From positions 928,001 to 992,000 of the forward strand of contig CBDEUK010000002.1 of the NCBI GenBank assembly GCA_965243205.1: DNA of 64,000 nucleotides, in the 5' to 3' direction. Origin of the DNA: Gammaproteobacteria bacterium. Its GTDB lineage: Bacteria; Pseudomonadota; Gammaproteobacteria; Eutrophobiales; Eutrophobiaceae. The position numbers were made by a program, and so were the translations under genes. Positions 28,962 to 43,911 of the stretch are shown piece by piece (the stretch's first letter is position 1; each line of letters starts with the position of its first letter). A model generated the notes under the pieces. It ran no database searches. It saw only the letters and a list, made by a program, of their open reading frames with translations, and was not told the origin of the DNA.

Positions 28962-29126
28962 CTAACTCAAAAGGCGATTCATTTCCTTAGCCAATTCCTC
29001 AATTTCATCGGCATACATTTGCAAAATAAGTGCACCGACTAATCCAGGGAAATTTTCTTTCATTTCCCATGAAATAACGTCTAATCGTTCCGAGATTTCA
29101 AACAACCTGAGTTTTCTCTCATTCAT
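28962..29126 (-). CDS. Unannotated 54-aa protein, copy 1 (MNERKLRLFEISERLDVISWEMKENFPGLVGALILQMYADEIEELAKEMNRLLS)
   Basis: AAGGA RBS; 50/54 aa identical to 43442-43606, with mostly synonymous differences. Confidence 0.85.
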   Translation of the reverse strand: MNERKLRLFEISERLDVISWEMKENFPGLVGALILQMYADEIEELAKEMNRLLS

Positions 29127-29148
29127 TCAAGTAATTCCTTTTAATGCC

Positions 29149-29193
29149 GCCATATATTGCGTGGTGTTGCTAGGGATACTGCCATAAATTGCG
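29149..29193. promoter_or_regulatory. Pair of operator-like sites GCCATAWATTGCG
   Basis: 29149-29161 and 29181-29193, 32 bp apart, quasi-palindromic, between the divergent 54-aa ORF and XRE gene. Confidence 0.6.
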
Positions 29194-29218
29194 GGTTATC
29201 TCAAATCAATTATGTTCA

Positions 29219-29461
29219 ATGCCAAAATCTAAAAAATACAATCCAGATTTTGAAAAGCTTTCTTTAAAAGTCCAAAAGAGAATTAAAGAGCTGAGATTAG
29301 AGTGTGGCCTATCACAAGAAGACTTAATGGATTACGAAATTTCATTAAGAACAATTCAAAGAATTGAACAATGTAAAGAGCCCGTGAATATTACATTATT
29401 AACGTTACACAGACTTGCCAATGCCTTTGGTGTGAAAACAAAAGAGCTGCTTGATATTTAA
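29219..29461 (+). CDS. XRE-family HTH regulator (controller-protein-like)
   Basis: RIKELRLECGLSQEDL...RTIQRIEQ...NITLLTLHRLANAFGV; ATG 29219 preferred over TTG 29189. Confidence 0.88.
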   Translation: MPKSKKYNPDFEKLSLKVQKRIKELRLECGLSQEDLMDYEISLRTIQRIEQCKEPVNITLLTLHRLANAFGVKTKELLDI

Positions 29462-29473
29462 TAAGCTTAACGC

Positions 29474-29503
29474 AAAAAAATAGCGACTATAGCCGCTATT
29501 TTT
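29474..29503. terminator. Bidirectional intrinsic terminator
   Basis: AAAAATAGCG-N8-CGCTATTTTT between convergent genes. Confidence 0.7.
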
Positions 29504-29567
29504 ATATATCTATTTTAACCTACAATACTATTAACTATTTTGACTGTATCCGATCCCTCAGTGGTAT

Positions 29568-30932
29568 TTAATCTTTAACATCTGTCCAGACTTCTGCATA
29601 TTCTCCAATTTCAAAACCCGAACCGGCACCGAACGATCCTGTAACGCCAACAAAGTGCGGTTGGTTTAATCCATCGGCTCTTTTGGGAGTGTAGTAATCA
29701 GACCAGACACCTAGACCACCATCAATCGTGCCGGAATAACCAAAACTTGCGACTGGAATACCCAGTGTATAGCCCTGAGCATAGCTATCGACAAATTCTC
29801 CTTTCCAGATTCCGACAGTGATTGCTCCATCAATAGCAACTGAAACACCTTTTGTCAGGCCATAGGATTTATATTTTTTGAAACTACCACTGCTGACATC
29901 ATAGGCAATACCAAATTCATAATTACCTCCAGCAATAATTGAACCGTCGGTAACAAAGCCAATTGTGATAGCGAATTTTTTTCTAGCTTCGCCTGATTCT
30001 TCAAAGGCTTCGTTTGAATCCTTGATGCCTTCTTTCAATGCTTCGAATTCTTCAAATTCGGTTAATAAGTCATAAGCTTCCTGCAGTTTTTTTCGTTTGA
30101 TGGCTTTTCGTATATTTTCGACTTTCGTTTTGGCTGCACCTGTTGCATTCGCTAGACCATTCCCTAAACTTACGATGCCTCTAAGCACTAGCGTATTTGC
30201 ATCTGACTCAATAATCTCTTCAAAGTAGGCTTTTAGATCGAAAGGTAAACCACAATATTTTTTATGTTTTAACCCAAGCCAGTTGCCACCGCGTTCCCAG
30301 ATATTTTTGGGAGCTGATTTATGCAGTGATAATCCAGCATTGCAACGGTATTGTTTTTCAACCCTACATTTTCCACTGTCCATGCCAGCGATATGTTTTC
30401 GTTTGGTTTTTGCAGGGCAAGATTTACAGAATCCTTTATGTCGGAATTCACCTTCACCACAACCATCGACATTCCTCACTCTGCCTTCAGCTGGCGCGTA
30501 ATCATTTTTACCTTTTTGATGTTTTTCACATGCTTTGGGGTGATTCATTTTACGAGTTACGCTGGCACGCTTATAACCATCAGGACAGGTGTAACAGTAT
30601 TTTGTACCATTGATTTTAGAGTAATAAACACCTTTACCTTTACAGCTATATCGACTTTCTTTTTTAGGAGTAACATTTTTACATTGATATTTGCCAACAT
30701 GGCCTCGGTATTTACATAGTCCCGGAAATTCTGCTGTACCGAGTGGGATAATTTCAACCTCTTCATTCGACGATGCGTTTCTTGCCCCTGAGTATGTTCT
30801 GGGTAAATCCAGGCTATCTTTTTTGATCTTGAAACTATCTGCGGCGATTGCCGAATGTACAAAAAGTAGCGTATATATTAAAAATATTGCAGTGAAAAAA
30901 TATTGAGTAGGAAATGTTTTTAATTGTGGCAT
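29568..30932 (-). CDS. Secreted protein: Cys-rich domain, helical linker and Gly-rich beta-type C-terminus
   Basis: Signal peptide (AIA); RYSCKGKGVYYSK...CYTCPDGYKRASVTRKMNHPKAC; AGGAGA RBS. Confidence 0.85.
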   Translation of the reverse strand: MPQLKTFPTQYFFTAIFLIYTLLFVHSAIAADSFKIKKDSLDLPRTYSGARNASSNEEVEIIPLGTAEFPGLCKYRGHVGKYQCKNVTPKKESRYSCKGKGVYYSKINGTKYCYTCPDGYKRASVTRKMNHPKACEKHQKGKNDYAPAEGRVRNVDGCGEGEFRHKGFCKSCPAKTKRKHIAGMDSGKCRVEKQYRCNAGLSLHKSAPKNIWERGGNWLGLKHKKYCGLPFDLKAYFEEIIESDANTLVLRGIVSLGNGLANATGAAKTKVENIRKAIKRKKLQEAYDLLTEFEEFEALKEGIKDSNEAFEESGEARKKFAITIGFVTDGSIIAGGNYEFGIAYDVSSGSFKKYKSYGLTKGVSVAIDGAITVGIWKGEFVDSYAQGYTLGIPVASFGYSGTIDGGLGVWSDYYTPKRADGLNQPHFVGVTGSFGAGSGFEIGEYAEVWTDVKD

Positions 30933-30960
30933 TATTTATCTCCTGGATAGACTGCTGGTG

Positions 30961-31953
30961 TTATGACTTTGGAATGCAATAACCCGTTTTGTATCTGGCA
31001 TTGTACATATCGGTTCGATAATACCGTTCGTAACCACTTGGACACGATTTACAAAAGCCTTTGTGTTTAAATTCACCTCTACCACAACCGTCGACATTAT
31101 CCACTTTAGTTGCAGCGGGCTTGTAATCGTTTTTACCTTTCTGGTGTAATTCGCATGCCTTTGGGTGATTCATTTTTCGTGTCACACTGGCGCGTTTATA
31201 ACCCTTTGGACAGGTGTAGCAGTATTTTTTTCCGTTGACTTTAGAATAATAAACACCTTTACCTTTACAACTGTATCGGTTTTTTTTCGTGGCTTCGATT
31301 TTCTGGCTTTCGAGTGATTCTGCTTCAGCGTCATCTTCATACTCATCGTCGCCATAATCGTCATCATCGCCGTCGTCCTCATACTCATCATCGAAATCAT
31401 CTTCATACCCGTCATCGTCTCCGCCTTCATCCTCTTCGGTATCTTCATCTTCTTCAGGATAAGAATCTTCACCCGCTTTTTCACTTTCAAAACTATCCTG
31501 GTCATCCAGTCGAACAGGAGAGAATGTTAAATTAACTGGGCCAAGCAAACCTTGAATGTTCACATTCATCGTACCGCTCGGTGTTAACTTCGCAGTAAAA
31601 GGTCCTACCAGTGGTAAGTCTTGACCAGCGTATTCACCTGGGCCTGTTCGAACCCAATCTTTTGAAACTACCATCAATGGTCCAATTTTTAGTACAAACA
31701 TATGCAACCAAGAATCAACCGCATAAGCACGCCCACGTTCGATGCGAATTCGTTTACGGATTTCATTGATCATCCACTCACCATCGATAGGCAGTTTGTC
31801 AGTCATTGGCACATCTGCCGCCATCGGTAAAAACGCTGGGATTTCTGGGATTCCGGTTGGGTTTGCGTGTACGTTTGGAACTGAAAAACCAATAATCATG
31901 GCAACCATAGCCAACATCATTTTTATGTTCAGTTTAAGAGCGGTCTTATTCAT
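30961..31953 (-). CDS. Secreted protein: beta-rich N-domain, D/E tract and Cys-rich domain
   Basis: Signal peptide (VHA); N-half near-identical to 33046-34059; Cys domain closest to 29568-30932. Confidence 0.85.
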   Translation of the reverse strand: MNKTALKLNIKMMLAMVAMIIGFSVPNVHANPTGIPEIPAFLPMAADVPMTDKLPIDGEWMINEIRKRIRIERGRAYAVDSWLHMFVLKIGPLMVVSKDWVRTGPGEYAGQDLPLVGPFTAKLTPSGTMNVNIQGLLGPVNLTFSPVRLDDQDSFESEKAGEDSYPEEDEDTEEDEGGDDDGYEDDFDDEYEDDGDDDDYGDDEYEDDAEAESLESQKIEATKKNRYSCKGKGVYYSKVNGKKYCYTCPKGYKRASVTRKMNHPKACELHQKGKNDYKPAATKVDNVDGCGRGEFKHKGFCKSCPSGYERYYRTDMYNARYKTGYCIPKS

Positions 31954-31996
31954 TTTATTCTCCGACTTTTTTTCTGTTTATGTACAAATTGAATGT
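31395..31996. repeat. ~600-bp direct repeat, copy 1
   Basis: Aligns to 33501-34102 at offset 2106 with roughly 15-20 mismatches by hand count; includes about 40 bp of leader/RBS. Confidence 0.9.
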
Positions 31997-32040
31997 AAAC
32001 GCTGTTAGGAATAATTTATTCGTATTCATTTCGGTGTTCA

Positions 32041-33036
32041 CTATTTCGATTGCACTCGTTCTGTTAAACGTCCACCTGCACCTATTTCATAAACATTAAC
32101 GTCACCACTGTGCTTATCATAAAAAAGAACACTATAGTCCCCAGAATAACGTCCATCATTATAAGCCGTTACAATATCCCAAGACTTACGCCAGCCTGTA
32201 TATCCTTTAACTAAACCGTCGACTTTGCCATCATCACTAAGCTTAAACACTTTACCGTGTCCATTGGTTTTATCGTAAAACAGTGCATACATTCTACCGC
32301 TATAGTAGTAAATATTGACGCTGTGCCAAGTATGTCGCCAGTTATCAGATTCATAAGTGACTTTTTCGACACCCTTAAGATTGTTTTTAAGCTTTACTAT
32401 TTTTACCTTCCCTTGTTCTCTGCTATACATAAGAAGATATTTTTTATAGCCACCATCATCATTGGAAAAATCCGTATACCACTGTTTCATTACATCCCAG
32501 CCCGTTCCCCACTCTTTAGAGGAATATATTGGCGCTCCAAAGTTATGATCTCCAGAGTTGTATTTGTATATTTTTGCTCGGCCATTGTCTTTATCGTAAA
32601 AAAGAAAGGTCTGATGCGGACGGCCAATATTCTCAACGATATCAAAACCTTTATAAAATTTTGAATACGTCTTTTTCTTCTTGGTTTTTTTATCTTTACC
32701 GAGTCCACCCATCTTATAAAGTTGCACATCACCCGTGGTTCCACTGTGGTACACACGTAAATTGGAACCAGCGGGGAAATTCATATGAGTCCAGGATTTA
32801 CGCCACTTAAATTCTTTATCCGACTGACGTTTTCGAATTCCAGATGAGGTTGATAAAAGATATTTATGAGCTCTTCCTGTATCACGATCGTAAGCAAATA
32901 AGACTGTTGCTTTGCCGACTTTGCCGATCTCTAATATATCGTAACCTTCTACCCAAGCTTGCGCGCTACTTGTAATGAAACTAAGTATGAATGCAACCAT
33001 TGTTATCAGTAATTTATTCATTTTCATTGTCTTCAC
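32041..33036 (-). CDS. Secreted basic beta-propeller protein (about six W-x-x-x-W...LFYD..xG repeats)
   Basis: WRKSWTH, WGTGWDV, WRHTWHS, WRKSWDI with LFAYDRDTG, FLFYDKDNG, ALFYDKTNG, VLFYDKHSG. Confidence 0.8.
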   Translation of the reverse strand: MKTMKMNKLLITMVAFILSFITSSAQAWVEGYDILEIGKVGKATVLFAYDRDTGRAHKYLLSTSSGIRKRQSDKEFKWRKSWTHMNFPAGSNLRVYHSGTTGDVQLYKMGGLGKDKKTKKKKTYSKFYKGFDIVENIGRPHQTFLFYDKDNGRAKIYKYNSGDHNFGAPIYSSKEWGTGWDVMKQWYTDFSNDDGGYKKYLLMYSREQGKVKIVKLKNNLKGVEKVTYESDNWRHTWHSVNIYYYSGRMYALFYDKTNGHGKVFKLSDDGKVDGLVKGYTGWRKSWDIVTAYNDGRYSGDYSVLFYDKHSGDVNVYEIGAGGRLTERVQSK

Positions 33037-33045
33037 TCCTAAGCT

Positions 33046-34059
33046 TTAGTCTAAAATTTTACAATAGCCACTGTCTAAACCAGCAATGTGCAAACGCTTG
33101 GTGCCTTCAGGACACGCTTTGCAATAACCTTTGTGTTTAAACTGACCTTTCTTACATTTCTTAAGATTGGCGAGCTTTCTGCCTTTTGCATACGTGTTTT
33201 TACCTTTGCGATTCACACAGGCTTTAGGATGATTCATTTTACGAGTAGCACTGGTTCTTTTCATGCCATCAGGACATGTATAGCAACCTTTAGATCCATT
33301 CACTTTTGAGTAATACAAACCTTTGCCTTTACATGAATAACGACTGAATGAAAGTGCTTCTACTTTTCTAGGTTCTTCTTCCTCTTCTTCATCGTAGAAT
33401 TCTTCATCTTCTTCCTCATCAAAATCTCCTTCTTCAAAGCCGCCATCTTCAAAATCATCCTCTTCGTCGTCCTCATACTCATCCTCGTATTCATCATCGT
33501 AATCATCTTCATACCCGTCATCGTCTCCGCCTTCATCCTCTTCGATATCTTCATCTTCTTCAGGATAAGAATCTTCACCCGCTTTTTCACTTTCAAAACT
33601 ATCCTGGTCATCCAGTCGAACAGGAGAGAATGTTAAATTAACTGGGCCAAGCAAACCTTGAATATTCACATTCATTGAACCGCTCGGTGTTAACTTCGCA
33701 GTAAAAGGTCCTACCAGTGGTAAGTCTTGACCAGCGTATTCACCTGGACCAGTTCGAACCCAATCTTTTGAAACCACCATCAATGGTCCAATTTTTAGTA
33801 CAAACATATGCAACCAAGAATCAACCGCATAAGCACGTCCTCTTTCGATGCGAATTCGTTTACGGATTTCATTGATCATCCACTCACCATCGATAGGCAA
33901 TTTGTCAGTCATTGGCACATCTGCCGCCATCGGTAAAAACGCTGGGATTTCTGGGATTCCGGTTGGGTTCGCTTGTACGTTTGGAACTGAAAAACCAATA
34001 ATCATGGCAATCATAGCCAACATCATTTTTATGTTCAGTTTAAGAGCGGTCTTATTCAT
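33046..34059 (-). CDS. Secreted protein: beta-rich N-domain, long D/E tract and Cys-rich domain
   Basis: Paralog of 30961-31953; first gene of the cluster. Confidence 0.85.
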   Translation of the reverse strand: MNKTALKLNIKMMLAMIAMIIGFSVPNVQANPTGIPEIPAFLPMAADVPMTDKLPIDGEWMINEIRKRIRIERGRAYAVDSWLHMFVLKIGPLMVVSKDWVRTGPGEYAGQDLPLVGPFTAKLTPSGSMNVNIQGLLGPVNLTFSPVRLDDQDSFESEKAGEDSYPEEDEDIEEDEGGDDDGYEDDYDDEYEDEYEDDEEDDFEDGGFEEGDFDEEEDEEFYDEEEEEEPRKVEALSFSRYSCKGKGLYYSKVNGSKGCYTCPDGMKRTSATRKMNHPKACVNRKGKNTYAKGRKLANLKKCKKGQFKHKGYCKACPEGTKRLHIAGLDSGYCKILD

Positions 34060-34102
34060 TTTATTCTCCGACTTTTTTTCTGTTTATATGCAAATTGAAT
34101 GT
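33501..34102. repeat. ~600-bp direct repeat, copy 2
   Basis: See 31395-31996. Confidence 0.9.
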
Positions 34103-34155
34103 TTTGGTTATTCAATTAATGTTAGCTATGTTAGAACTGACTGCATTTTATTGAT

Positions 34156-34173
34156 ATGGGGTAAGCACCCCAT
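34156..34173. promoter_or_regulatory. Palindrome ATGGGGT-N4-ACCCCAT upstream of the secreted-protein cluster
   Basis: ATGGGGTAAGCACCCCAT; a second copy lies at 35818-35835. Confidence 0.6.
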
Positions 34174-34238
34174 TTTTATAAAATTATAGTTATTACTTAA
34201 CCTTATATGAGACTGAGTCCAGTGAATACCCTATTCAT

Positions 34239-35744
34239 TTATGTTTCTTGTTTTAGCATCGAAACATAAATGGAAGTACCAACACCCTGTTTTGAACGTA
34301 GCTCAAATGGCAACTCTTGTGCCTCACACAGTGCTTGCACGATGCCTAAACCAAGACCTTCACCATCTGATCCCAGACCTTTTTCACCTTTAAGCAACAA
34401 TGTTGGTTGCACTGCATCAGCAATACCCAAACCATTGTCATGCACTTGAAAAATTACTCGATGACCCTTGCTACGAAAACCCACTAAGATTCGGCTGGCT
34501 TTCGCATGTTTAAGCGCATTACTAATGAGGTTGGTCATAATCCGCATGGTTGATAATGGTTCAACTAGAACCGTGTGTTTACCTGAAAAGAATCGTATTT
34601 GAATATTGTTTTGCTCTGCGTCGCTTTCAAACATTTTACGCAGAGCATTGATCAACATCGAGGTTGAAATAGTTTCAACGCCATCAGCAGAAGTTGGTGT
34701 TTCCGTATCAACTTCATCCGTCAAATATGACCTGGACAAACTATCGATATAATCCACTGCCAAGCTGAGTTTTTCAGCATCGTGTTTTTTATCATGCATT
34801 AATTTTTCAACCGCAAGACGTAATGCTGAGATAGGTTGTTTTAAATCATGAGAAACACTGGCCAGTTGATCTTGATGTCTAGCTGCAACATCAAGTGCTT
34901 TGTTGTAAGCTTGTTCAGATTCAAGCAACGCGAGTTTCATCTCTGCCTCGTTTTTTGCAGACTCAGCCGCTTGTAACTCAGCCATGTCTTTTTGTTGTTT
35001 ATTATTAAACGCTTGCCAAATAACGATCGTTAAAGAAAAGAAAGCAACTAGTAACAATATCACTCGATATAAATCATTAAAGTCATGCTGAGTCGTGTTT
35101 GTTAAAGAGGATAAATACCAATAACCAATCACAGTCACCAAAGCAACAACAATAGGGTACGTTCTGATAAACCATCGTAATTTCTGACTATAACTGTTCC
35201 ATGTTAACGGAGGTAGAAACTGACAAATCACCATGCCAATAAAAAGAATATTCGCTGGCATCCACATCTTAGCTAAAGAGATATTTCCTAACCAAAATAC
35301 AGTACTCATTGCAAACAACAGACTGATAACGGAAAGGATGAAAAACAGTTGTTTAAAGCGGGCTAAAAAATGCGGTAGTTTTATTTGTAAACCAATCACT
35401 AAATAACCATAACTAGAAATCAATGTTGTCAGTAAAAAAGGTAATACCCATAGAATAAAATCATTACTAACAATATTAGTTTTATTGGATGCAAAGTATG
35501 CGAGCGAACCATCGATGGATGATGCATGAATCACTAGTAATAGCGATAACAATACATAAAATAACCATTGAGTTTCTTTGTAGGCGAAAATAATAAGTGC
35601 CGCGAAAGCAATGCCACATAAAGCGAAGGTGTAAAAAATGTAGTCGACTGATTGTGGTACAAAGCTAGCCGTTAACGCAAAAGCATTACTGAAAAACAGC
35701 GGCAAACAAACAGTAATCAATTTACTATAGACATTAGCCCACAA
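34239..35744 (-). CDS. Multi-TM (about 7-8) sensor histidine kinase
   Basis: SVSHDLKQPISAL H-box, NLISNALKH, DNGLGI, GLGLGIV. Confidence 0.92.
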   Translation of the reverse strand: MWANVYSKLITVCLPLFFSNAFALTASFVPQSVDYIFYTFALCGIAFAALIIFAYKETQWLFYVLLSLLLVIHASSIDGSLAYFASNKTNIVSNDFILWVLPFLLTTLISSYGYLVIGLQIKLPHFLARFKQLFFILSVISLLFAMSTVFWLGNISLAKMWMPANILFIGMVICQFLPPLTWNSYSQKLRWFIRTYPIVVALVTVIGYWYLSSLTNTTQHDFNDLYRVILLLVAFFSLTIVIWQAFNNKQQKDMAELQAAESAKNEAEMKLALLESEQAYNKALDVAARHQDQLASVSHDLKQPISALRLAVEKLMHDKKHDAEKLSLAVDYIDSLSRSYLTDEVDTETPTSADGVETISTSMLINALRKMFESDAEQNNIQIRFFSGKHTVLVEPLSTMRIMTNLISNALKHAKASRILVGFRSKGHRVIFQVHDNGLGIADAVQPTLLLKGEKGLGSDGEGLGLGIVQALCEAQELPFELRSKQGVGTSIYVSMLKQET

Positions 35745-35815
35745 AACTCTCGAACCCCTTACTATTTATGATCTAACAAGCTTATGGGAAGTATTCTAAA
35801 AAAACACTTAGGTTT

Positions 35816-35837
35816 AAATGGGGTGAACACCCCATTT
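35816..35837. promoter_or_regulatory. Palindrome AAATGGGGTG-AA-CACCCCATTT upstream of the kinase
   Basis: Same arms as 34156-34173; lies just after the RR stop codon, so a hairpin role is not excluded. Confidence 0.55.
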
Positions 35838-35838
35838 A

Positions 35839-36486
35839 TTAAACACTTTCTAATAAGCCGTCTTTTAATGCTCTAGCCATTAATTCTGAAAATGAATGAA
35901 CCTCTAGTTTAGCCATCAAACTGGTTCGATGTTTATCAACTGTTTTAGGACTGATGCTAAGCATAGTCGCAATGTCTTTATTCGTCTTACCTGACATTAA
36001 CATATTTAAGATCTGTCGTTCACGATTGGTTAAACTCACTGCCTTTCGACCTTGTTCAATCATCTCAACAAACTCAGGTGCAATATAACGAGCCCCACGC
36101 ATTATCTTTGGTATTTGCTCAAACATCTCGTTAAGAGAAGCACTTTTACTAAACAAGCCATCAATGCCAGTTTCAACAATGCTTGCAACTAAACCTGGTG
36201 CGGTAATGCCCGTGAAGATAAGAATTTTCGTATCCGGACTCCAACGTCGAATATCATGAATAATTTCTGAGCCATTGGCTAATGGCATGGAGATATCAAG
36301 AAATAAAATGTTTGGCTTTTGCGACTTAACAAGCGCAATGGCGTCAATACCATTTTCAGCAATACCAACTAATTCAAATTGAATCGTATTAGCTTGCTCA
36401 AGATAATCACTAATAGCTCCACGAATCACTTCATGATCATCAGCAATCACCACGGTATAGATTGAGTCGGCACTTAACATCGTCAT
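35839..36486 (-). CDS. NarL/LuxR-family response regulator
   Basis: IADDH, LDISMP, LTNRERQIL...SISPKTVDKHR. Confidence 0.95.
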   Translation of the reverse strand: MTMLSADSIYTVVIADDHEVIRGAISDYLEQANTIQFELVGIAENGIDAIALVKSQKPNILFLDISMPLANGSEIIHDIRRWSPDTKILIFTGITAPGLVASIVETGIDGLFSKSASLNEMFEQIPKIMRGARYIAPEFVEMIEQGRKAVSLTNRERQILNMLMSGKTNKDIATMLSISPKTVDKHRTSLMAKLEVHSFSELMARALKDGLLESV

Positions 36487-36613
36487 ATATTGTTTAATTT
36501 TATAAACAGATTATCACGTTAAGTTTGGCAATTTACAAACTGTTACTATTTTGAAAAGGCTAGACGAGTTAATATACAGTCAATTGATGGGTTTCAAATA
36601 AAGGTAACTTCAA

Positions 36614-37747
36614 TTGACAGAATCAAACAGCGGTTTACACAAATCAGCGCAACGATTATTTGATCATGCAGGAGTAGTTTTCAATGGAGACAAGCCTTGG
36701 GATATACAGGTTCATAACCCTAAATTATACCGACGAATTCTAACGGGCGGTTCAATTGGTTTAGGTGAATCTTATATGGACGGCTGGTGGGATTGTGAAC
36801 AAATGGATGTCTTATTCGACAAAGTCATTGGTGCTCAACTCGCACAAAAAATAAAAGGCACTGCGCAGTTGGAAATCGTAGGTCGTTTAATTTTAGACTT
36901 TCTTTTTAACCGTCAATCAAAAGCAAGAGCGGTTCAGGTAGCCGATGCTCATTACAACCTCGGTAATGATCTATTCGAAAGAATGCTCGATAGCAGTATG
37001 AATTATAGTTGTGCTTATTGGAAAAATGCCGATTCCCTCGAGCAAGCACAAATCAATAAAATGGAATTAATCTGCCAAAAACTTAAATTAAGCGCTGGCA
37101 TGAAAGTGTTGGACATTGGTTGTGGTTGGGGTGGGCTAGCAAACTATATGGCTAAACACTATCAAGTAGAAGTCGATGGTTTAACCATATCCAAAGAACA
37201 ACAAGCGCTTGCAACGGAACGTAACCAAGGGCAACCTGTTAACATTCGTTTGCAAGACTATCGAGATATGAATGGTCAATATGATCGTATTGTTTCGGTA
37301 GGCATGTTTGAACACGTCGGCCAAAAAAATTACTCAACCTATTTTAATAAAGCCAGCGAACTACTCAGCAAAGAAGGTTTATTTTTACTGCATACCATTG
37401 GCTCTGAAGTCACATCAACCACAACTGATGGTTTCATTCAAAAATATATTTTCCCTAATGGCATCATCCCTACTCGTGGTGAAATCACCAAAACCAGTGA
37501 AGATATTCTTAGACTGGAAGACTGGCATAACTTCGGCCCCTATTATGATCTTACCTTAATGGCATGGTTAGAAAATTTTGAAGCCGCATGGTCAGAACTT
37601 AAGAAAGATTACAGTGAACGTTTCTACCGTATGTGGCGCTATTACTTATGTTGCTCTGCTGGTTATTTCCGCTGTCGCGAAGGACAACTCTGGCAACTCG
37701 TTTTTGCACATCCAGAAAACCGTTCACACTACGATAGTGTAAGATAG
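36614..37747 (+). CDS. cfa: Cyclopropane-fatty-acyl-phospholipid synthase
   Basis: GLGESYMDGWW, HYNLGNDLF, VLDIGCGWG, SVGMFEHVG, RMWRYYL. Confidence 0.95.
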   Translation: MTESNSGLHKSAQRLFDHAGVVFNGDKPWDIQVHNPKLYRRILTGGSIGLGESYMDGWWDCEQMDVLFDKVIGAQLAQKIKGTAQLEIVGRLILDFLFNRQSKARAVQVADAHYNLGNDLFERMLDSSMNYSCAYWKNADSLEQAQINKMELICQKLKLSAGMKVLDIGCGWGGLANYMAKHYQVEVDGLTISKEQQALATERNQGQPVNIRLQDYRDMNGQYDRIVSVGMFEHVGQKNYSTYFNKASELLSKEGLFLLHTIGSEVTSTTTDGFIQKYIFPNGIIPTRGEITKTSEDILRLEDWHNFGPYYDLTLMAWLENFEAAWSELKKDYSERFYRMWRYYLCCSAGYFRCREGQLWQLVFAHPENRSHYDSVR

Positions 37748-37830
37748 AATAACTATAAGAATGGGTTTACAAAGCTTTACCAAATATCACTAACTTTTTT
37801 AAGCTTACTTTAAATTTTTAATTTATTCTT

Positions 37831-39342
37831 TTAGTTAATATTTAATTTTTGCAATACATCTTTTATAGGTATTAGATTATTTATATTCGTAGAGCCACCG
37901 CCTCTAGTAACGTATCCAGAAACTGTAATACCGATAACATTTCCATATTCATTAAACACTGGCCCACCTGAATTCCCGGGATTCACTGCTGCATCCGTTT
38001 GTAGATAATCAAGGCTTTCTAATTCTCTTTTTGCAGAGATAATTCCTTTGCTAATAGAAAAATCAAGTTGCTCATCAAGTGGGGTTCCAACAACATAGAT
38101 AGTTTCGCCAAGTTCAACTGGATTTTTTTCAATATCAACAATAGACATGTCATAGTTATCTTTAATTTTAAGTAGTGCAACATCACGCATTTTATCTTTA
38201 TATAAAATTTCAGCTTTAAACTTCTTACTGTTGATAATCAATATCGCTTCAGAACTACCAGAGACAACATGTTCATTGGTAACGACATATCCATTTTTAT
38301 CAATTACCAAACCACTGCCATGGCCATTTTTTGTCCTAACAGTTGCGGTTGCATTACGAATATTTTTAATTTTCTCATTAAATTTTTTCTCTGAGCTACC
38401 ATATTGAATATTAACAATATAATTTGTTATAGATTTTTTATCTTTTTCATTTTTAACCGTATTAGAATTAAATAACTCTACAAACTTTTTATTTGATAAA
38501 AGCTCCTCTATTGCATGATGAAAAGCCAGGCTTACGCTAAGAATAGTACCTTGAGATCTGGGCGGCTTTTTAAAGCCTAAATCTGTACCTTTTGATTCAC
38601 CTTTAAAAACTATTTCTCTTGATAAATTATCGAAAACTTCCCATTTCACATTTATAAAAGTTGAGTTTTGAGTATAGCTCTTTAGACTAATAGCATTTGC
38701 TTTACCACAATATTCTAAACGAATCTCTGTTATCTCAGCGGCTAAACTTAAGTCACTATTGCTAGTATCTTGCATAGCAAACTTCTTATTCTCTGCGCCT
38801 ATCGTCTGATATCCATTTTTATTAAATGATTTTTGAAAAGGTTCTTGGAAATCTGTCGATTTAATAATCGTTTTAGCATTTGATAAATTTAATTCACCAT
38901 CGGGCAAACAAGCAAAGGGGCTGGTAAGAACTTTCTCATTTTTATATAAGTTTCTAATCTTTTTTTCATCATTTTTTGAATATTTAAATGCTTTGCCAAC
39001 TATAGGATTTTCACCAAGTCCTAACCCACCAATTTCTAAAGAAACATGCTCAAGACTTATTGATTTAGAAGAATCGGAAACATTTTTAATTGGTTTTGGT
39101 TTGGGAAGCAACGGAATTGATTTTGCATTTGAAGAACGATTATTATTTTTAATATCGACTTTATTAGTTTGTTTCTTTTTTGAAGAAGGCGGCTTATCAG
39201 AAAAATGAACTTTGCCATTCTCATCAACCCATTTATAAACTTCAGCTTTTGTAGTGAATGAGAAAAAAATGAAGCACAATACGGGAGTCGTTACGAAATA
39301 ATAAAGATACTTATTATCCATAATAGAAAAAAACCTTATCAT
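37831..39342 (-). CDS. DUF4124 + trypsin-like (S1C) serine protease
   Basis: VYKWVDENGKVHFSDKPP; TNEHVV, DVALLK, NPGNSGGP. Confidence 0.9.
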   Translation of the reverse strand: MIRFFSIMDNKYLYYFVTTPVLCFIFFSFTTKAEVYKWVDENGKVHFSDKPPSSKKKQTNKVDIKNNNRSSNAKSIPLLPKPKPIKNVSDSSKSISLEHVSLEIGGLGLGENPIVGKAFKYSKNDEKKIRNLYKNEKVLTSPFACLPDGELNLSNAKTIIKSTDFQEPFQKSFNKNGYQTIGAENKKFAMQDTSNSDLSLAAEITEIRLEYCGKANAISLKSYTQNSTFINVKWEVFDNLSREIVFKGESKGTDLGFKKPPRSQGTILSVSLAFHHAIEELLSNKKFVELFNSNTVKNEKDKKSITNYIVNIQYGSSEKKFNEKIKNIRNATATVRTKNGHGSGLVIDKNGYVVTNEHVVSGSSEAILIINSKKFKAEILYKDKMRDVALLKIKDNYDMSIVDIEKNPVELGETIYVVGTPLDEQLDFSISKGIISAKRELESLDYLQTDAAVNPGNSGGPVFNEYGNVIGITVSGYVTRGGGSTNINNLIPIKDVLQKLNIN

Positions 39343-39397
39343 GATTAAAAAGAATAATTATAGGCTGATTTCATGCCAATATGCACTATTTCTATAA

Positions 39398-39426
39398 AAA
39401 TTAAAGCGCTATGTCCTCTTTAATTT
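39398..39426. repeat. REP-like site A
   Basis: AAATTAAAG-CGCTATGTCCT-CTTTAATTT. Confidence 0.6.
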
Positions 39427-39570
39427 CTGATTTTTTTAACTACTTAGTTCTTGAGATAATATATTTTTTTAAGCGGTATATGATTTGGGTAAGGAGTAAA
39501 GAATTTTCATATGAAACTTGGATTCAAACTATCAAGAAAAGATTTTAAGAAAGCGAAAAAATAATATTGA

Positions 39571-39593
39571 AAAGAGCTCAGCCCCCTTTAATT
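39571..39593. repeat. REP-like site B (contains the stop codon of 39588-40406)
   Basis: AAAG-AGCTCAGCCCC-CTTTAATT. Confidence 0.65.
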
Positions 39594-40406
39594 ATTATTA
39601 CTAACTACTGATTTTCTAATAAACACTAGCAACATTGCCAACACCACTAAATATATGGCTGGAATAGGGATCTGTTCTACTTCTGGTTCTGGTTCTGGTT
39701 CTGGAATTTCAATTGAGAACTGGCTGCTGAGTGTTGTATTAATCTGATTTTGAGTCAGACGTTCACCTGGGTTAGCTGTGCCAGACGCGGACATCAGGTT
39801 CTGCAGTTCACTCGGTGGATGCGGTAAACCAAGGTTATGCCCAATCTCATGAGCAACCACACTGGCAATGACTTCCCGACCACCTACAAAGCCCAGTAAA
39901 TTCGCACCTACGTATTGTGTAATGCCATTGCCACCTATAGAAGCGAGACCCGCTGCGGAATTGGCGGACAATAAAGGAAACCCTGCAGCAATTCGTACGA
40001 AGAACATATTAATGACTGTAGGATCCGAATGGGTAATGCCTGCCGCTTGAGCATCAAGCCGAATGATTGATAGCTCACTGGTTGAACGAGAATTGCCGTT
40101 ATTGTTCGGTGGTCCACCTGCCCCCCAGTTCGCAAACGTATTATTCCAACTGACTGGCGTAAGAAACTCCACATCAATACCCGCCTGTGCCCAAACAATA
40201 TCAACAAACTGTTCTATCTCTTCCTGTTGTGCAGAATTGCCAAAATAAGTTGCCGTGTTAGCGCCATTGTCATCGGAAAGAATGATCGGCTGAACTCTAA
40301 CAGTGTGAGTAATTGGCTGTGGCGGATTCGTGATTAATGCCGCGTAAACAATTAGCGGCACTACTAATAGAACAGGTAAGAAAGGCAATAAACGATGAAA
40401 CGACAT
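39588..40406 (-). CDS. Secreted metzincin-type zinc metalloprotease with C-terminal sorting tail
   Basis: HEIGHNLGLPH plus NLM Met-turn; PEPEPEPE linker, then IPIPAIYLVVLAMLLVFIRK. Confidence 0.88.
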   Translation of the reverse strand: MSFHRLLPFLPVLLVVPLIVYAALITNPPQPITHTVRVQPIILSDDNGANTATYFGNSAQQEEIEQFVDIVWAQAGIDVEFLTPVSWNNTFANWGAGGPPNNNGNSRSTSELSIIRLDAQAAGITHSDPTVINMFFVRIAAGFPLLSANSAAGLASIGGNGITQYVGANLLGFVGGREVIASVVAHEIGHNLGLPHPPSELQNLMSASGTANPGERLTQNQINTTLSSQFSIEIPEPEPEPEVEQIPIPAIYLVVLAMLLVFIRKSVVSNNN

Positions 40407-40422
40407 ATCGGTTACCCGCTTG

Positions 40423-40800
40423 TTATGGGCAGACCATGTCAGTCACTTTCATGACAATGACATTCGATTCTGAGTTATAGCTATTCTGATCGAGTGTGAG
40501 TTCACCCATATAGATATCATCACATTCAGGCTCTGTTTGACTTTGCTTTGAGGCAGTAGCTTGAATCGTCACCGTCTCAGATACAGGTTCACTGATTTGC
40601 CATTCACTGCAATCATCGTTCATGCAGCTTAGATAATGCTTCTTTTGAGGTGCTGCCGTCTGAAAACAACGAAGCATTTCAATATCAATAGCCTCACCTT
40701 GTTCATCGACTGCTTTGGCAGTCAAACTGTAAGTCGGTTCAGCAGAAGCTTGTGCGCTAAAGATAAGACATAAAATAGAGGCAATAATGAGATGTCGCAT
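40423..40800 (-). CDS. Secreted hypothetical protein with several Cys (start probably 40800)
   Basis: MRHLIIASILCLIFSAQASA signal peptide; GGAG RBS before 40800. Confidence 0.7.
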   Translation of the reverse strand: MRHLIIASILCLIFSAQASAEPTYSLTAKAVDEQGEAIDIEMLRCFQTAAPQKKHYLSCMNDDCSEWQISEPVSETVTIQATASKQSQTEPECDDIYMGELTLDQNSYNSESNVIVMKVTDMVCP

Positions 40801-40951
40801 CAAGATGCTCCGTCGAGTGTTTATTTGGCAAAAAATTATCGTAACCATCAATAAAAAACAAGCAGATAACTTTTAGAATGTGATGAGGTTCAGTGTTATG
40901 TTCTAGACGATGAAATCAGGCAATTTATGATATTCCTTTATTGATTTAACT

Positions 40952-41932
40952 TTATTTATCTCTAGATTGTTCAGCCATTATCCTGTCAATATTAGATATT
41001 TGAGCTTCATTTTTTAGCTCGACAAAGAGTTTTCTTGCAGTCTCTAATGTATTATTCGATTCGCTAATCAATCCTTTCTCTCTTAGTATCAAACCTATCG
41101 TTAAATATTCTGTGGCGATTGCTGGTTTATCTTTATAGTCAAAATAAATATCCAGAGCCAGTTTGGAAAATTTTTCAGCTTGATCAAATTTTTTCTGTTT
41201 TAAATATAATTTCCCTAAGCCCGTATAATTAAGTGCTAATCGATGACTGTAGTTAGTTTTTATATTGAGTTCGGCACTATCAAGATAATTTTTTTCAGCT
41301 GAATCCTCATCACCTTCTTTTGCATCTATCATTGCAAAATTGTGATACAAGGATGCTATACCACTTTCATCGTTAATTTCTTTATAATATTTCATTCCAT
41401 TTTCATAGCTTTCTCTCGCTTTATTGAGTTTAACCAAACTATGATAAAGATTTCCAAGGTCATGATAATCCGAAGCAAGTTCTAACGCTGAGTGATTGTT
41501 TTTATCATTACTTATATTTTTTAAAAATAGTGCTTCAGATTTATCTATCTGATGAAGTTCTCTATAGATATTGGCTAGTTTGCGATATCGACTTCTTTGA
41601 TGCTTATGTAATCCAGCCTTATCACTAACATCAATTGCTTTTGTGTAATATTTTCTCGCTTCTTCAAACTGACTTAAATGGTAGTAAATGTCACCAATAT
41701 TATCCAAAGCATGAATTTTGTAGTCAGGAAATTGATCTGACATTTCAAGTAATTTAAATCTGGCTTTTAATCCTTCATTTAATTTATTTTGATTAAGCAA
41801 ATCTGTCCCAAAAATATCCATTTCTTCTAATTTAGATAATCCTGAATTATTGCTTTCAATCTCTGAATTTGCAGATGCACCAAAGCATCCTAAAATTGAG
41901 ATAATAATAAATACAAAAAGGATATCTCTCAT
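40952..41932 (-). CDS. Exported tetratricopeptide repeat protein
   Basis: Repeated NIGDIY/DLGNLY/GLGKLY...A.....AL TPRs; N-terminal hydrophobic signal. Confidence 0.88.
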   Translation of the reverse strand: MRDILFVFIIISILGCFGASANSEIESNNSGLSKLEEMDIFGTDLLNQNKLNEGLKARFKLLEMSDQFPDYKIHALDNIGDIYYHLSQFEEARKYYTKAIDVSDKAGLHKHQRSRYRKLANIYRELHQIDKSEALFLKNISNDKNNHSALELASDYHDLGNLYHSLVKLNKARESYENGMKYYKEINDESGIASLYHNFAMIDAKEGDEDSAEKNYLDSAELNIKTNYSHRLALNYTGLGKLYLKQKKFDQAEKFSKLALDIYFDYKDKPAIATEYLTIGLILREKGLISESNNTLETARKLFVELKNEAQISNIDRIMAEQSRDK

Positions 41933-41991
41933 TTCATTTTCTGAATTTTATTTATCGTTTTCAAAATGAAAAAAATAGTTACACTAAATAA

Positions 41992-42600
41992 TTAACCAGA
42001 AGTAGCTACCCTTAGGATGTAACTAATGCCTTCATCAAATAATTTTTTGATTCTAGTTGTATATTCTTTATTTTCAGATGGAAAATTTAAGAATTTCAAA
42101 TCTGAATAAACAAATTCACCCGTATAATCAAAAGCTTTACCATTGACTGTGCCTGTTAATTTTAAGCGAAAAAAATCTCCTGCTGCTAAACCAGGAATTC
42201 GATAGGTAACTGGGCCACTTGAAACAGATGCAACTGCCGCAGCAGTCGCGATAGCAGCAGCTTGTTTTGCACTATCATCACAATACTCAACGGTTTCGTA
42301 TGTATTTATTTTAATTTCGAATGTCTGATTGGATTCAGAATCACTCGCTATTCTATTTTTTAAATAACTTAATTTTGTTGGCGCAATAAAATCATCTCCA
42401 TACCATCTAGAGCAGGTCGGAAATTCGCCAAAATAAGTGGTTTTCGATTCTTCAGCCCTATTATCAATAATACTAATATTATTTATATCAGCTCCTAACT
42501 CCCCTTTATCCATAAGTGTTACTTTTTGTGAATAAGCACAAGCACTGATAAAAGAAATTAATACTATTAAGGTAAAAATATTCTTCATTTGGCCCTCCAA
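41992..42600 (-). CDS. Hypothetical lipoprotein (start probably MKNIF at 42588)
   Basis: Lipobox ISAC; IIDNR strand; Ala-rich segment. Confidence 0.72.
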   Translation of the reverse strand: MEGQMKNIFTLIVLISFISACAYSQKVTLMDKGELGADINNISIIDNRAEESKTTYFGEFPTCSRWYGDDFIAPTKLSYLKNRIASDSESNQTFEIKINTYETVEYCDDSAKQAAAIATAAAVASVSSGPVTYRIPGLAAGDFFRLKLTGTVNGKAFDYTGEFVYSDLKFLNFPSENKEYTTRIKKLFDEGISYILRVATSG

Positions 42601-42633
42601 TTTAATTTTTTAAATTGTAATTATTTTATCCTT

Positions 42634-42660
42634 TTAAAAAGGCTTTGACTCCTTTAATTT
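42634..42660. repeat. REP-like site C
   Basis: TTAAAAA-GGCTTTGACTC-CTTTAATTT. Confidence 0.6.
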
Positions 42661-42760
42661 TAGTTCTAACAGGTTGATCTAAATATTAATATATGGAAAC
42701 ATATTAATGTTGATAAGTTGTATTTATAAATAATTAACTCTCAAAAGAAGGGATTTTCTC

Positions 42761-43324
42761 ATGCTAATTAAATCTTTAATTATATCCTCAGCTATTTTTG
42801 TTTCATTATCCGTCTCTGCCGAATCAGTTTACTTAGACATAGATACACCTACCTCTGGTAGTGAATTAGATACATCTCCGCTTATAACAAGTTTGGGTAC
42901 TATAAGCTTTATTGGAGTCATTAGTGATTTTACTGATCCTGATTTAACTGCTGTCGGAGCGGCAGGTAATCTTTTAAACATTAATGGGAGTACAGATGAC
43001 TCAGCAACCTTAAGTTTTAGTTTCGATGTTGATTCAGTATCCTTCATTTTCGGTGGGAACGGTGGAGCATTTGATATTGTTGCACGTGATGCACTCGGGA
43101 ACACTATCGATTCTTACTTTGGCTCAACTGATAATGGTGATTTTGCCGGACCTCTGACACTTTCAGGTGGAGGTATAAGAAGCTTGTTTTGGCAAGATCC
43201 AGGCTGGAATTTTGCTGGGATAGATAACATTACTATTTCCACCTCTCCAGTACCAGTGCCTGCAGCAGTATGGTTATTGGGCTCTGCTCTTTTAGGTTTA
43301 TCAGGTTTAAAACGGAAGAAATAA
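42761..43324 (+). CDS. VPLPA-CTERM (exosortase substrate) surface protein
   Basis: Signal peptide; C-terminal VPVPAAVWLLGSALLGLSGLKRKK. Confidence 0.9.
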   Translation: MLIKSLIISSAIFVSLSVSAESVYLDIDTPTSGSELDTSPLITSLGTISFIGVISDFTDPDLTAVGAAGNLLNINGSTDDSATLSFSFDVDSVSFIFGGNGGAFDIVARDALGNTIDSYFGSTDNGDFAGPLTLSGGGIRSLFWQDPGWNFAGIDNITISTSPVPVPAAVWLLGSALLGLSGLKRKK

Positions 43325-43349
43325 AACAATATCTCATCAAATTTATCAT

Positions 43350-43370
43350 GGCTCCTGCAAAGGAGCCTTT
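43350..43370 (+). terminator. Intrinsic terminator
   Basis: GGCTCCT-GCAA-AGGAGCC followed by a T run. Confidence 0.7.
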
Positions 43371-43409
43371 ATTAATTTAATCAAATACCTACTAGTAATA
43401 GCGAAACAT

Positions 43410-43435
43410 ATAAAAATGTTCTGACCTCTATAATT
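43410..43435. repeat. REP-like site D
   Basis: ATAAAAA-TGTTCTGACCT-CTATAATT. Confidence 0.55.
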
Positions 43436-43441
43436 ATTTTT

Positions 43442-43606
43442 CTAACTCAATAAACGATTCATTTCCTTAGCCAACTCTTCGAGTTCAGCCGCATACATTT
43501 GCAAAATAAGTGCGCCCACCAATCCAGGGAAGTTCTCCTTCATTTCCCATGAAATAACATCCAACCGTTCTGAAATTTCAAAAAGCATGAGTTTTTTCTC
43601 GTTCAT
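43442..43606 (-). CDS. Unannotated 54-aa protein, copy 2 (MNEKKLMLFEISERLDVISWEMKENFPGLVGALILQMYAAELEELAKEMNRLLS)
   Basis: AAGGA RBS; same length and frame as copy 1. Confidence 0.85.
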   Translation of the reverse strand: MNEKKLMLFEISERLDVISWEMKENFPGLVGALILQMYAAELEELAKEMNRLLS

Positions 43607-43642
43607 TTAGGTAAATCCTTTTTCCACAATGCAAAAAACTAT

Positions 43643-43696
43643 TTATGTTCACATGTGAACATAAGAATAACACATGATTGTTCACTTATGAACAAT
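43643..43696. promoter_or_regulatory. Pair of operators TGTTCA-N4-TGAACA
   Basis: Perfect 22-bp palindrome TTATGTTCACATGTGAACATAA (43643-43664) and ATTGTTCACTTATGAACAAT (43677-43696); cores 33 bp apart. Confidence 0.75.
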
Positions 43697-43713
43697 TAAG
43701 TGGGATTATTTTT

Positions 43714-43911
43714 ATGGATCTATCTACTCGACTTTCGGAGAATCTTAAAAAGAGAAGAGGAAAAATGACGCAAGAGGAATTTGCCAAAAAACTTAAAATT
43801 AGTAGAGCAACTTTAACTAGGTTAGAAAACCGATCGCAAAACGTAACTCTCAGTACATTAGAACAAATAATAAAATCACTAAAGTGTGATATTGCTGATA
43901 TTTTTAATTAA
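43714..43911 (+). CDS. XRE-family HTH regulator
   Basis: LKKRRGKMTQEEFAKKLKISRATLTRLENRSQNVTLSTLEQI; ATG 43714 preferred because TTG 43678 lies in the operator. Confidence 0.9.
   Translation: MDLSTRLSENLKKRRGKMTQEEFAKKLKISRATLTRLENRSQNVTLSTLEQIIKSLKCDIADIFN

Follow-up and report, generated by a model that had tools for sequence, protein, structure and literature searches.

Two copies of a small gene face unrelated XRE regulators

Within a 64,000-nucleotide stretch of a gammaproteobacterial genome of the Eutrophobiaceae (GenBank assembly GCA_965243205.1, contig CBDEUK010000002.1, positions 928,001 to 992,000 of the forward strand; hereafter referred to as the window), a 54-codon gene is present in two copies, A and B. 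As reported in a preliminary description of this DNA, both copies lie on the minus strand, are preceded by a ribosome-binding site (RBS) and translate into 54 residues followed by a stop codon (Table 1). Each copy is divergently paired with a small gene encoding an XRE regulator with a helix-turn-helix (HTH) domain, designated XRE-A and XRE-B, respectively. When the ATG starts supported by orthologues are used, the gap between the small gene and the XRE gene is 92 bp for A and 107 bp for B, in agreement with the ~90–110 bp given previously. The divergent arrangement is common to 4/4 copies with readable DNA, namely the two copies of the window and one copy in each of two relatives, genomes G127 and G134, such that no homologue lacking a divergent XRE gene, which the preliminary description had named as grounds against its reading, is encountered among them.

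The two regulators are minimal proteins. The HTH domain of XRE-B spans residues 8–64 of 65, XRE-A adds only an N-terminal extension of 15–20 residues, and neither protein has a C-terminal domain. As claimed previously, the XREs are only distantly similar to each other: BLASTP of XRE-A against XRE-B returns no alignment at E <= 100, and 27% of the positions are identical in a MAFFT alignment. Among the PADLOC models, XRE-A matches Control_protein (3.9e-8), and XRE-B matches HTH_VI (1.9e-9) as well as Control_protein (1.7e-7); in addition, both match PHROG phage repressor families.

Table 1. Positions of the genes and candidate regulatory sites at the two loci, in window coordinates.
Feature	Position	Strand	Description
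Small gene, copy A (P0001)	28962..29126	minus	54 codons and stop; predicted two-helix coiled-coil-like hairpin
RBS of copy A	29136..29142	minus	AAAAGGA, 9 nt ahead of the ATG, inside the upstream stretch shared with copy B
A-type candidate operator 1	29144..29161	none	Core CGCCATATATTGCG, palindrome with 10-nt arms; perfect 14-bp palindrome in G127 and G134
A-type candidate operator 2	29176..29193	none	CTGCCATAAATTGCG; 32 bp from operator 1
XRE-A	29219..29461	plus	80 aa, Cro/C1-type HTH; Pfam HTH_3 4e-7; ATG 29219 supported by orthologues
Small gene, copy B (P0002)	43442..43606	minus	54 codons and stop; protein 93% identical to copy A
RBS of copy B	43616..43622	minus	AAAAGGA
B-type candidate operator 1	43646..43661	none	TGTTCACATGTGAACA, perfect 16-bp palindrome
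B-type candidate operator 2	43679..43694	none	TGTTCACTTATGAACA; 33 bp from operator 1, start to start
XRE-B	43714..43911	plus	65 aa, HTH domain only; Pfam HTH_26 4e-12, HTH_3 4.8e-12; ATG 43714 supported by orthologues

The small gene encodes a protein under purifying selection

The two open reading frames (ORFs) differ at 25 of their 165 bases, with the differences distributed 3/3/19 over codon positions 1, 2 and 3. This corresponds to 18 synonymous and 4 non-synonymous codon differences (R4K, R7M, D40A and I42L), and our recount thereby reproduces the numbers of the preliminary description. By the NG86 method, the non-synonymous distance (dN) between the copies is 0.047 and the synonymous distance (dS) is 1.31, giving a ratio of 0.036, and the LWL85 method gives a ratio of 0.066 with a dS of 0.63, where the disagreement between 1.31 and 0.63 illustrates how noisy dS is for only 54 codons. 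When 25 random substitutions are introduced into copy A, the mean number of amino-acid changes over 200,000 simulations is 16.2 and the minimum is 7, compared with the 4 observed, and none of the 200,000 simulations yields four changes or fewer. None of the other five frames of the 54-codon ORFs is open. Thus, as had been proposed, the ORF encodes a real protein under purifying selection.

The similarity between the copies is limited to the gene, beginning at the RBS and stopping at the stop codon. DNA identity is 85% within the ORF and 13/20 in the 20 nt upstream that bear the RBS, and amounts to 26% farther upstream and 28% downstream, which is the random level. The genome from which the window is taken (two contigs totalling 2.79 Mb, with 100% completeness judged from marker genes; hereafter the own genome) contains exactly two copies. 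Both 54-amino-acid (aa) proteins are recorded as called proteins in NCBI and ENA and are therefore, contrary to the preliminary description, annotated publicly; only the list of ORFs on which that description was based missed them. No Rfam family is found at the gathering score between positions 27000 and 46000 of the window. Small proteins are under-annotated and seldom come with evidence that they are real, and here the duplication within one genome makes selection on a 54-aa orphan clearly visible.

Paired palindromes in the divergent gaps

Each of the two gaps contains a pair of palindromes that we consider as candidate operators. The A-type pair consists of ATGCCGCCATATATTGCG and ATACTGCCATAAATTGCG, which are 32 bp apart; the sites are near-invariant in the window, G127 and G134, with one C/A difference in the core, and the spacer between them varies. 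The B-type site is kept upstream of the XRE-B orthologues in genomes G111 and G134. Across the whole 2.79-Mb genome, exact matches to the A or B operator pattern occur at their own loci only, and, when one mismatch is allowed, the A pattern is found as often as a reversed control pattern. Since the exact matches are confined to the respective loci, each XRE looks like a dedicated local regulator of its divergent pair. The XREs are inferred to bind these palindromes, and control may be by repression or by activation. In the region of copy B, weak promoter-like hexamers (8–9/12 matches) overlap the operators on both strands.

On the distal side of copy B, positions 43350–43367 of the plus strand form a terminator-like hairpin, GGCTCCTGCAAAGGAGCC, with a T-run behind it. 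The hairpin ends the gene for a PEP-CTERM protein, 75 nt past the stop codon of copy B. A terminator-like site was not found at copy A.

Exchange of the regulatory cassette

Members of the small-gene family are present in 3/126 species genomes of the bacterial family to which the window belongs, namely the own genome, G127 and G134. In both relatives, a 57-aa family member is divergent from an orthologue of XRE-A (71–73% identical) and the A-type operators are present. Orthologues of XRE-A are found in exactly these three genomes and in no others, and this shared restriction identifies XRE-A and the small gene as the native pair. XRE-B has a distinct distribution, with homologues (E <= 1e-8) in 7/126 genomes at 8 places outside the window locus, among which the orthologues in G111 and G134 share 72% and 70% identity, respectively. 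The 54-aa gene is present at none (0/8) of these loci. Rather, five of the eight XRE-B homologues face a member of another small helical family of about 72–85 aa (one with only 24% identity in the alignment), which is predicted to form three helices with a predicted local distance difference test score (pLDDT) of 84.5. Of the remaining loci, that in G134 retains only the first codons of this other family, beside an IS3-type fragment, one faces an unrelated 136-aa ORF and one is without a divergent ORF. A relationship between the 54-aa family and the small family facing XRE-B was considered and rejected (hhalign probability 1.4%).

Because XRE-B loci elsewhere lack the 54-aa gene and face an unrelated family, the comparison identifies copy B as a chimera, in which an XRE-B cassette with its operators is joined to the RBS and ORF of the 54-aa family. 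The suggestion of the preliminary description that the effector was kept and the regulator swapped is thereby borne out, with XRE-A tracking the family and XRE-B occurring elsewhere without it. Traces of both arrangements are also found in metagenomic proteins: the over-called N-terminus of P0007 translates across a B-type operator, with 10/12 residues equal to the upstream frame of window copy B, and that of P0010 translates across A-type operators, with 15/18 residues identical to G127. In addition, one contig from a related organism (run X5) matches the window as far as position 29142 and then picks up again at 43644, with 20 other bases lying between the two parts.

The two components of the native pair evolve at different rates. 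The small proteins of G127 and G134 share 52% identity (ratio 0.39), compared with 84% for their XRE-A proteins (ratio 0.06); the window proteins are 30–39% identical to the members from G127 and G134. Within the own genome, in contrast, the copies share 93% identity although their synonymous sites are close to saturation. Fast divergence between genera combined with near-identity within a genome fits an effector that is matched to a lineage-specific partner common to both copies, which is an argument and not a measurement because dS from 54 codons is noisy. The slow-evolving XRE-A and the unrelated XRE-B are unlikely to be that partner.

We note that a third module of an XRE and a small gene is located in the own genome about 63 kb beyond the end of the window (G000:C2:1055100-1055470), where the gene for an XRE 45% identical to XRE-B is transcribed away from a gene of the other small helical family.

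The small protein is a predicted helical hairpin

The 54-aa family is tiny, with about 12 members among billions of proteins. A phmmer search of 1.84 billion representatives recovers two proteins only, copy B and another 54-aa protein with 69% identity, and a 6-sequence profile run against 5.8 billion proteins recovers 10 proteins of 54–92 aa, for which the only name is 'hypothetical protein'; no member is found in a profile search among longer proteins. The protein has no match in Pfam, PADLOC or PHROG and nothing beyond a weak match to NF009006 in NCBIfam, and tblastn against 50,697 phage records gives no match. Among 400 sampled genomes of the class there is no family member, with one weak match (E 5.6e-4) inside a 736-aa ORF, and scans of genome, viral and metagenome contigs for the metagenomic members yield no confirmed locus. 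A literature search by architecture found no paper on the family, which for a nameless family is weak evidence of its being undescribed.

AlphaFold2, supplied with a 4-row alignment, predicts two helices comprising residues 3–25 and 29–53 with a mean pLDDT of 89.8, which agrees with the helical hairpin guessed at in the preliminary description and suggests that the product is coiled-coil-like. In the PDB, sequence matches are limited to de novo antiparallel coiled-coil designs. Foldseek of the model against the PDB returns nothing at E <= 0.001, the best Z of a wide VIA-align search is 7.5, within the background of helical models, and the best score in the ESM Atlas is 0.79, under the lead level of 0.9; the fold searches with this model thus return generic helical hairpins only. 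With an isoelectric point of 4.6 and a net charge of about –4.5, the protein is acidic, and no membrane or hydrophobic span is present. Prediction of a complex between XRE-A (3-row alignment) and the small protein (10-row alignment) gives 0.04 and 0.02, compared with a mark of 0.32, scores that speak neither for nor against binding.

A candidate regulatory cassette and its alternatives

Tentatively, we favour a model in which each locus would be a self-contained regulatory cassette, with the XRE controlling both itself and a protein-binding 54-aa effector. A dimer of the minimal, Cro/C1-type XRE would bind the two palindromic operators, which lie three helical turns apart in the divergent promoter region, and would thereby control its own gene as well as the facing 54-aa gene. 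The product, a soluble, acidic and probably coiled-coil-like helical hairpin, would most likely bind another protein as an output of the antirepressor or adaptor type, similar to the small proteins of the transcription factor–small ORF (TF–smORF) modules of phages discussed below; an action by protein binding is suggested by the predicted hairpin, the PDB matches to coiled-coil designs, the acidic sequence without a hydrophobic span and the divergence pattern described above. Copy A, together with XRE-A, would represent the native arrangement of the family, and copy B a chimera in which the usual partner of XRE-B, another small gene, has given way to the RBS and ORF. In this way, one output would be wired to two unrelated, dedicated sets of regulator and operators, such that two different inputs could raise one effector.

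A more far-reaching version of this model is rather doubtful in our view, namely that the loci constitute a phage-independent chromosomal small-protein switch in which the hairpin acts on a host target or a lineage-specific one, cassettes are exchanged at the RBS, the two loci operate as an OR gate and the parts are interchangeable. If this were true, the fast divergence between genera and the near-identity within the genome would represent co-evolution with the target of the effector. On present evidence, the loci hold a rare, lineage-restricted orphan family in an arrangement of a common kind, rather than a categorically new system. With two orthogonal XRE/operator pairs, genome-unique sites and one output, they also offer a compact test case.

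Several observations weigh against the regulatory cassette as we propose it. With so tiny a family, very few independent loci stand behind each comparative count, and the noise in dS mentioned above affects the estimates of constraint. None of the public sequencing runs listed is recorded as RNA, and sigma-70 scans of the A region reveal no convincing promoter. A Pfam scan of the 23 larger ORFs between 18.6 and 51.8 kb of the window detects no integrase, transposase or phage family, and the mobility that the preliminary description had ascribed to the module is accordingly not borne out in the window. Likewise, the own genome contains no match to Peptidase_S24 (LexA/cI-type) at E <= 0.001, where a control search finds matches in 9/14 reference genomes, and no match to PF04860, the one portal family tried, such that the known target class of TF–smORF proteins is not found. 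Finally, the ancestral role of the small gene could be tied to the metallophosphoesterase that adjoins it in the relatives.

This enzyme and its neighbours bear on two of the alternatives. In both G127 and G134, 44–46 bp downstream of the small gene and in the same orientation, lies the gene for a 247-aa metallophosphoesterase (Metallophos_2 2e-12) that matches the PADLOC defence candidate PDC-S10 (5e-13), and the locus adjoins genes for an MqsA-zinc-finger/HTH(-Panacea) protein and an AbiEi-like protein; the XRE-B orthologues in G134 and genome G145 precede SRA-HNH or HNH nuclease genes. With such neighbours, the cassettes of the relatives sit in defence-island-like settings. Together with the matches of both XREs to Control_protein and phage repressor families, this would agree with the window loci being relics of the immunity regions of mobile or defence elements that have since decayed, in which the XRE is a leftover cI- or C-protein-like controller and the small gene opens a controlled early or cargo operon that has lost its cargo, for example a nuclease or the phosphoesterase. 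As remnants of defence-island control regions, the loci would be an ordinary finding. Decay would be expected in this case, yet both small genes are intact with a ratio of about 0.04, the operators are intact as well, and no mobile-element genes surround either locus. A homologue of the phosphoesterase is absent from the own genome, and among the seven close orthologues of the enzyme (55–100% identity) the small gene lies upstream only in G127 and G134; the five others, in G133, G143, G106, G148 and G145, have other neighbours and no small gene upstream, which argues against the small gene belonging to that cargo. A relic origin therefore appears unlikely. The constant order of the two genes in 2/2 relatives that possess the family could also mean that the small protein is a partner of the metallophosphoesterase, such as an inhibitor, chaperone or specificity subunit, with the window copies left as orphans after loss of the enzyme. 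However, a small gene at only 2/7 orthologues indicates that the phosphoesterase is not an obligate partner, and both window copies are strongly constrained in a genome devoid of the enzyme, which makes a partnership of this kind improbable.

The preliminary description had also entertained a toxin–antitoxin-like pair, comprising a 54-aa toxin and an XRE that serves as antitoxin and repressor. The best NCBIfam matches of XRE-B are indeed antitoxin models (HipB 6.9e-9 and PezA 4.9e-6), although far under the curated cut-offs (18–36 bits for the HipB, PezA and HigA models compared with cut-offs of 47.7–290), and the loci of the relatives lie among toxin–antitoxin-type genes. Rather than forming an operon, however, the two genes are divergent, also in G127 and G134, and the small protein is acidic, lacks a membrane span and matches no toxin family in Pfam, NCBIfam or PADLOC. 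In addition, two XREs without detectable similarity would need to neutralise a 93%-identical toxin, and XRE-B consists of no more than a 65-aa HTH domain. We regard such a pair as highly improbable and do not retain this part of the earlier proposal. Even less credence is due to the idea that the 54-aa protein was co-opted as a fragment from a 2-methylcitrate/citrate synthase, corresponding to the two helices on either side of the conserved FPN-L/V-D turn. This idea derives from residues 2–29, the sole part of the protein that resembles any known protein, namely a synthase helix ending in the conserved FPNL turn. With a narrow 4-sequence profile, 43 further genomes of the 126 match at a per-genome E <= 0.01 (best 4e-6), only over residues about 2–29 and inside ORFs of 179–482 aa, and all 25 such loci read (23 distinct places) encode citrate-synthase-type proteins. 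BLASTP against one synthase aligns 11/24 identities (32 bits), a single post-hoc comparison with hhalign gives a probability of 70% (P 4e-5 over 28 columns), the 2-methylcitrate synthase model NF009006 of NCBIfam is matched at the same profile positions, and tblastn against plasmids finds only prpC loci. Set against this, the match to NF009006 reaches only E 0.12 and 10.7 bits for copy A, compared with a cut-off of 550, and is absent for copy B, Pfam Citrate_synt (PF00285) is not matched at E <= 1 and the plasmid prpC matches have E values of 0.2–0.6 only. No synthase is recovered by phmmer among the 1.84 billion proteins or in the profile search among longer proteins, and the broader 6-sequence profile yields 0 synthase matches at E <= 0.001, compared with 27 for the narrow profile. 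Moreover, W20 and the FPG turn are not kept across the wider family, and the match covers one amphipathic helix only, the likeness of which is probably all that the resemblance reflects. A match to a fragment of a longer known gene, which the preliminary description had said would count against it, is thus not observed at database-wide significance.

Relationship to described small-protein switches

By analogy, the nearest described kind to the cassettes of the window are the TF–smORF modules of phages, although membership in this kind is not established. As described by Silpe et al. (2023, Nature), these modules of linear plasmid-like prophages comprise a transcription factor, which is of the XRE type in Aeromonas phages, facing a small ORF of 156–171 nt without homologues; the transcription factor activates the small ORF, the product of which inactivates the phage cI repressor without proteolysis, and the modules reside in phage genomes at repA-telN or parB loci (PMC10432266). 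The window loci likewise present a small DNA-binding transcription factor counter-oriented to an ORF of similar size (54 codons, compared with ~52–57) without predictable domains or, beyond about 12 family members, homologues. The modules resemble one another little in sequence and yet follow one logic, with control specific to the partner promoter, and the same would hold for the window loci. By contrast, a location in a phage or phage-plasmid is not seen here, as there are no phage genes nearby, no match among the phage records and no PF04860. A further difference is that the same small protein is found under two unrelated transcription factors, an arrangement that is not described in the sections consulted of that paper (PMC10432266). 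The loci may therefore be viewed as a candidate chromosomal analogue of phage small-protein switches. If they work like TF–smORF modules, the same logic would also run in chromosomes outside prophages, and the regulator with its operators on the one hand, and the RBS with the small ORF on the other, would be shuffled as units.

The controller (C) proteins of restriction–modification systems resemble the window XREs in being minimal XRE-fold autoregulators with paired palindromes upstream of their own gene, consistent with the matches to Control_protein and with the HNH-type nuclease genes that follow the XRE-B orthologues in G134 and G145. However, no restriction or methylase gene is present at either window locus, and the neighbour that would be under control is the divergent 54-aa gene. 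The C-box layout of controller proteins is compact, whereas the operators in the window are 32–33 bp apart, start to start. In cryptic-prophage pairs of E. coli such as RacR/YdaS and DicA/DicC-DicB, an XRE repressor is divergent from small genes whose products act on host proteins, and these systems share with the window loci that the pair of XRE and small gene is maintained on a chromosome lacking a functional phage. The small protein is not related to them in sequence, having no Pfam, PHROG or NCBIfam match, and the window loci have no flanking prophage remnants.

SinR of Bacillus subtilis contains a C-terminal helical domain that is related to SinI and constitutes the pairing surface. XRE-A and XRE-B have little or nothing beyond the HTH and no C-terminal helical domain, and this distinguishes them from SinI-type systems. 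Indeed, two XREs that are unrelated beside small proteins that are 93% identical argue against a specific fit of the small protein to the neighbouring XRE. What SinI/SinR and the AimX/AimC pair of arbitrium phages do have in common with the window loci is a helical protein of tens of residues encoded beside an HTH regulator gene; in those systems it binds the repressor rather than DNA, and AimX is described as a small antirepressor in a preprint (bioRxiv 10.1101/2025.11.23.689978).

Genomic surroundings

The neighbours of the two loci in the window encode a catalase-peroxidase, a lipase, peptidases, a two-component system, a cyclopropane-fatty-acid synthase, and TPR, PEP-CTERM and GGDEF proteins, and several ORFs near the modules have no Pfam match. 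A 96-aa ORF downstream of copy A was considered as a partner of the small gene and rejected, as it is a separate, widespread gene (63/126 genomes) that is located on different contigs from the small gene in G127 and G134.

A stretch of G134 comprising loci L031 (G134:C49:7000-17000) and L038 (G134:C49:1-2036) looks like a defence island. It begins with the IS3-type fragment, the truncated small gene and the XRE-B orthologue, followed by the SRA-HNH nuclease, then the MqsA-zinc-finger/HTH-Panacea protein and a 133-aa protein of no assigned kind, and ends with XRE-A divergent from the small gene and the PDC-S10-like metallophosphoesterase, and the AbiEi-like gene. The same metallophosphoesterase family closes other toxin–antitoxin-like operons in G106 (L055), after an AbiEi-like gene and a 281-aa gene, and in G148 (L056), after a 97-aa protein in which we presume a HepT-like motif; the enzyme may recur in such operons as a cargo or accessory gene.

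On the minus strand beyond XRE-A, positions 29568–30932 and 30961–31953 encode two adjacent secreted proteins without a Pfam match, which have in common a cysteine-rich module of 102 residues with 71% identity, placed differently in the two proteins (residues 83–184 and 215–316, respectively). The contig of the related organism skips positions 29508–32040 and is therefore without both of these genes.

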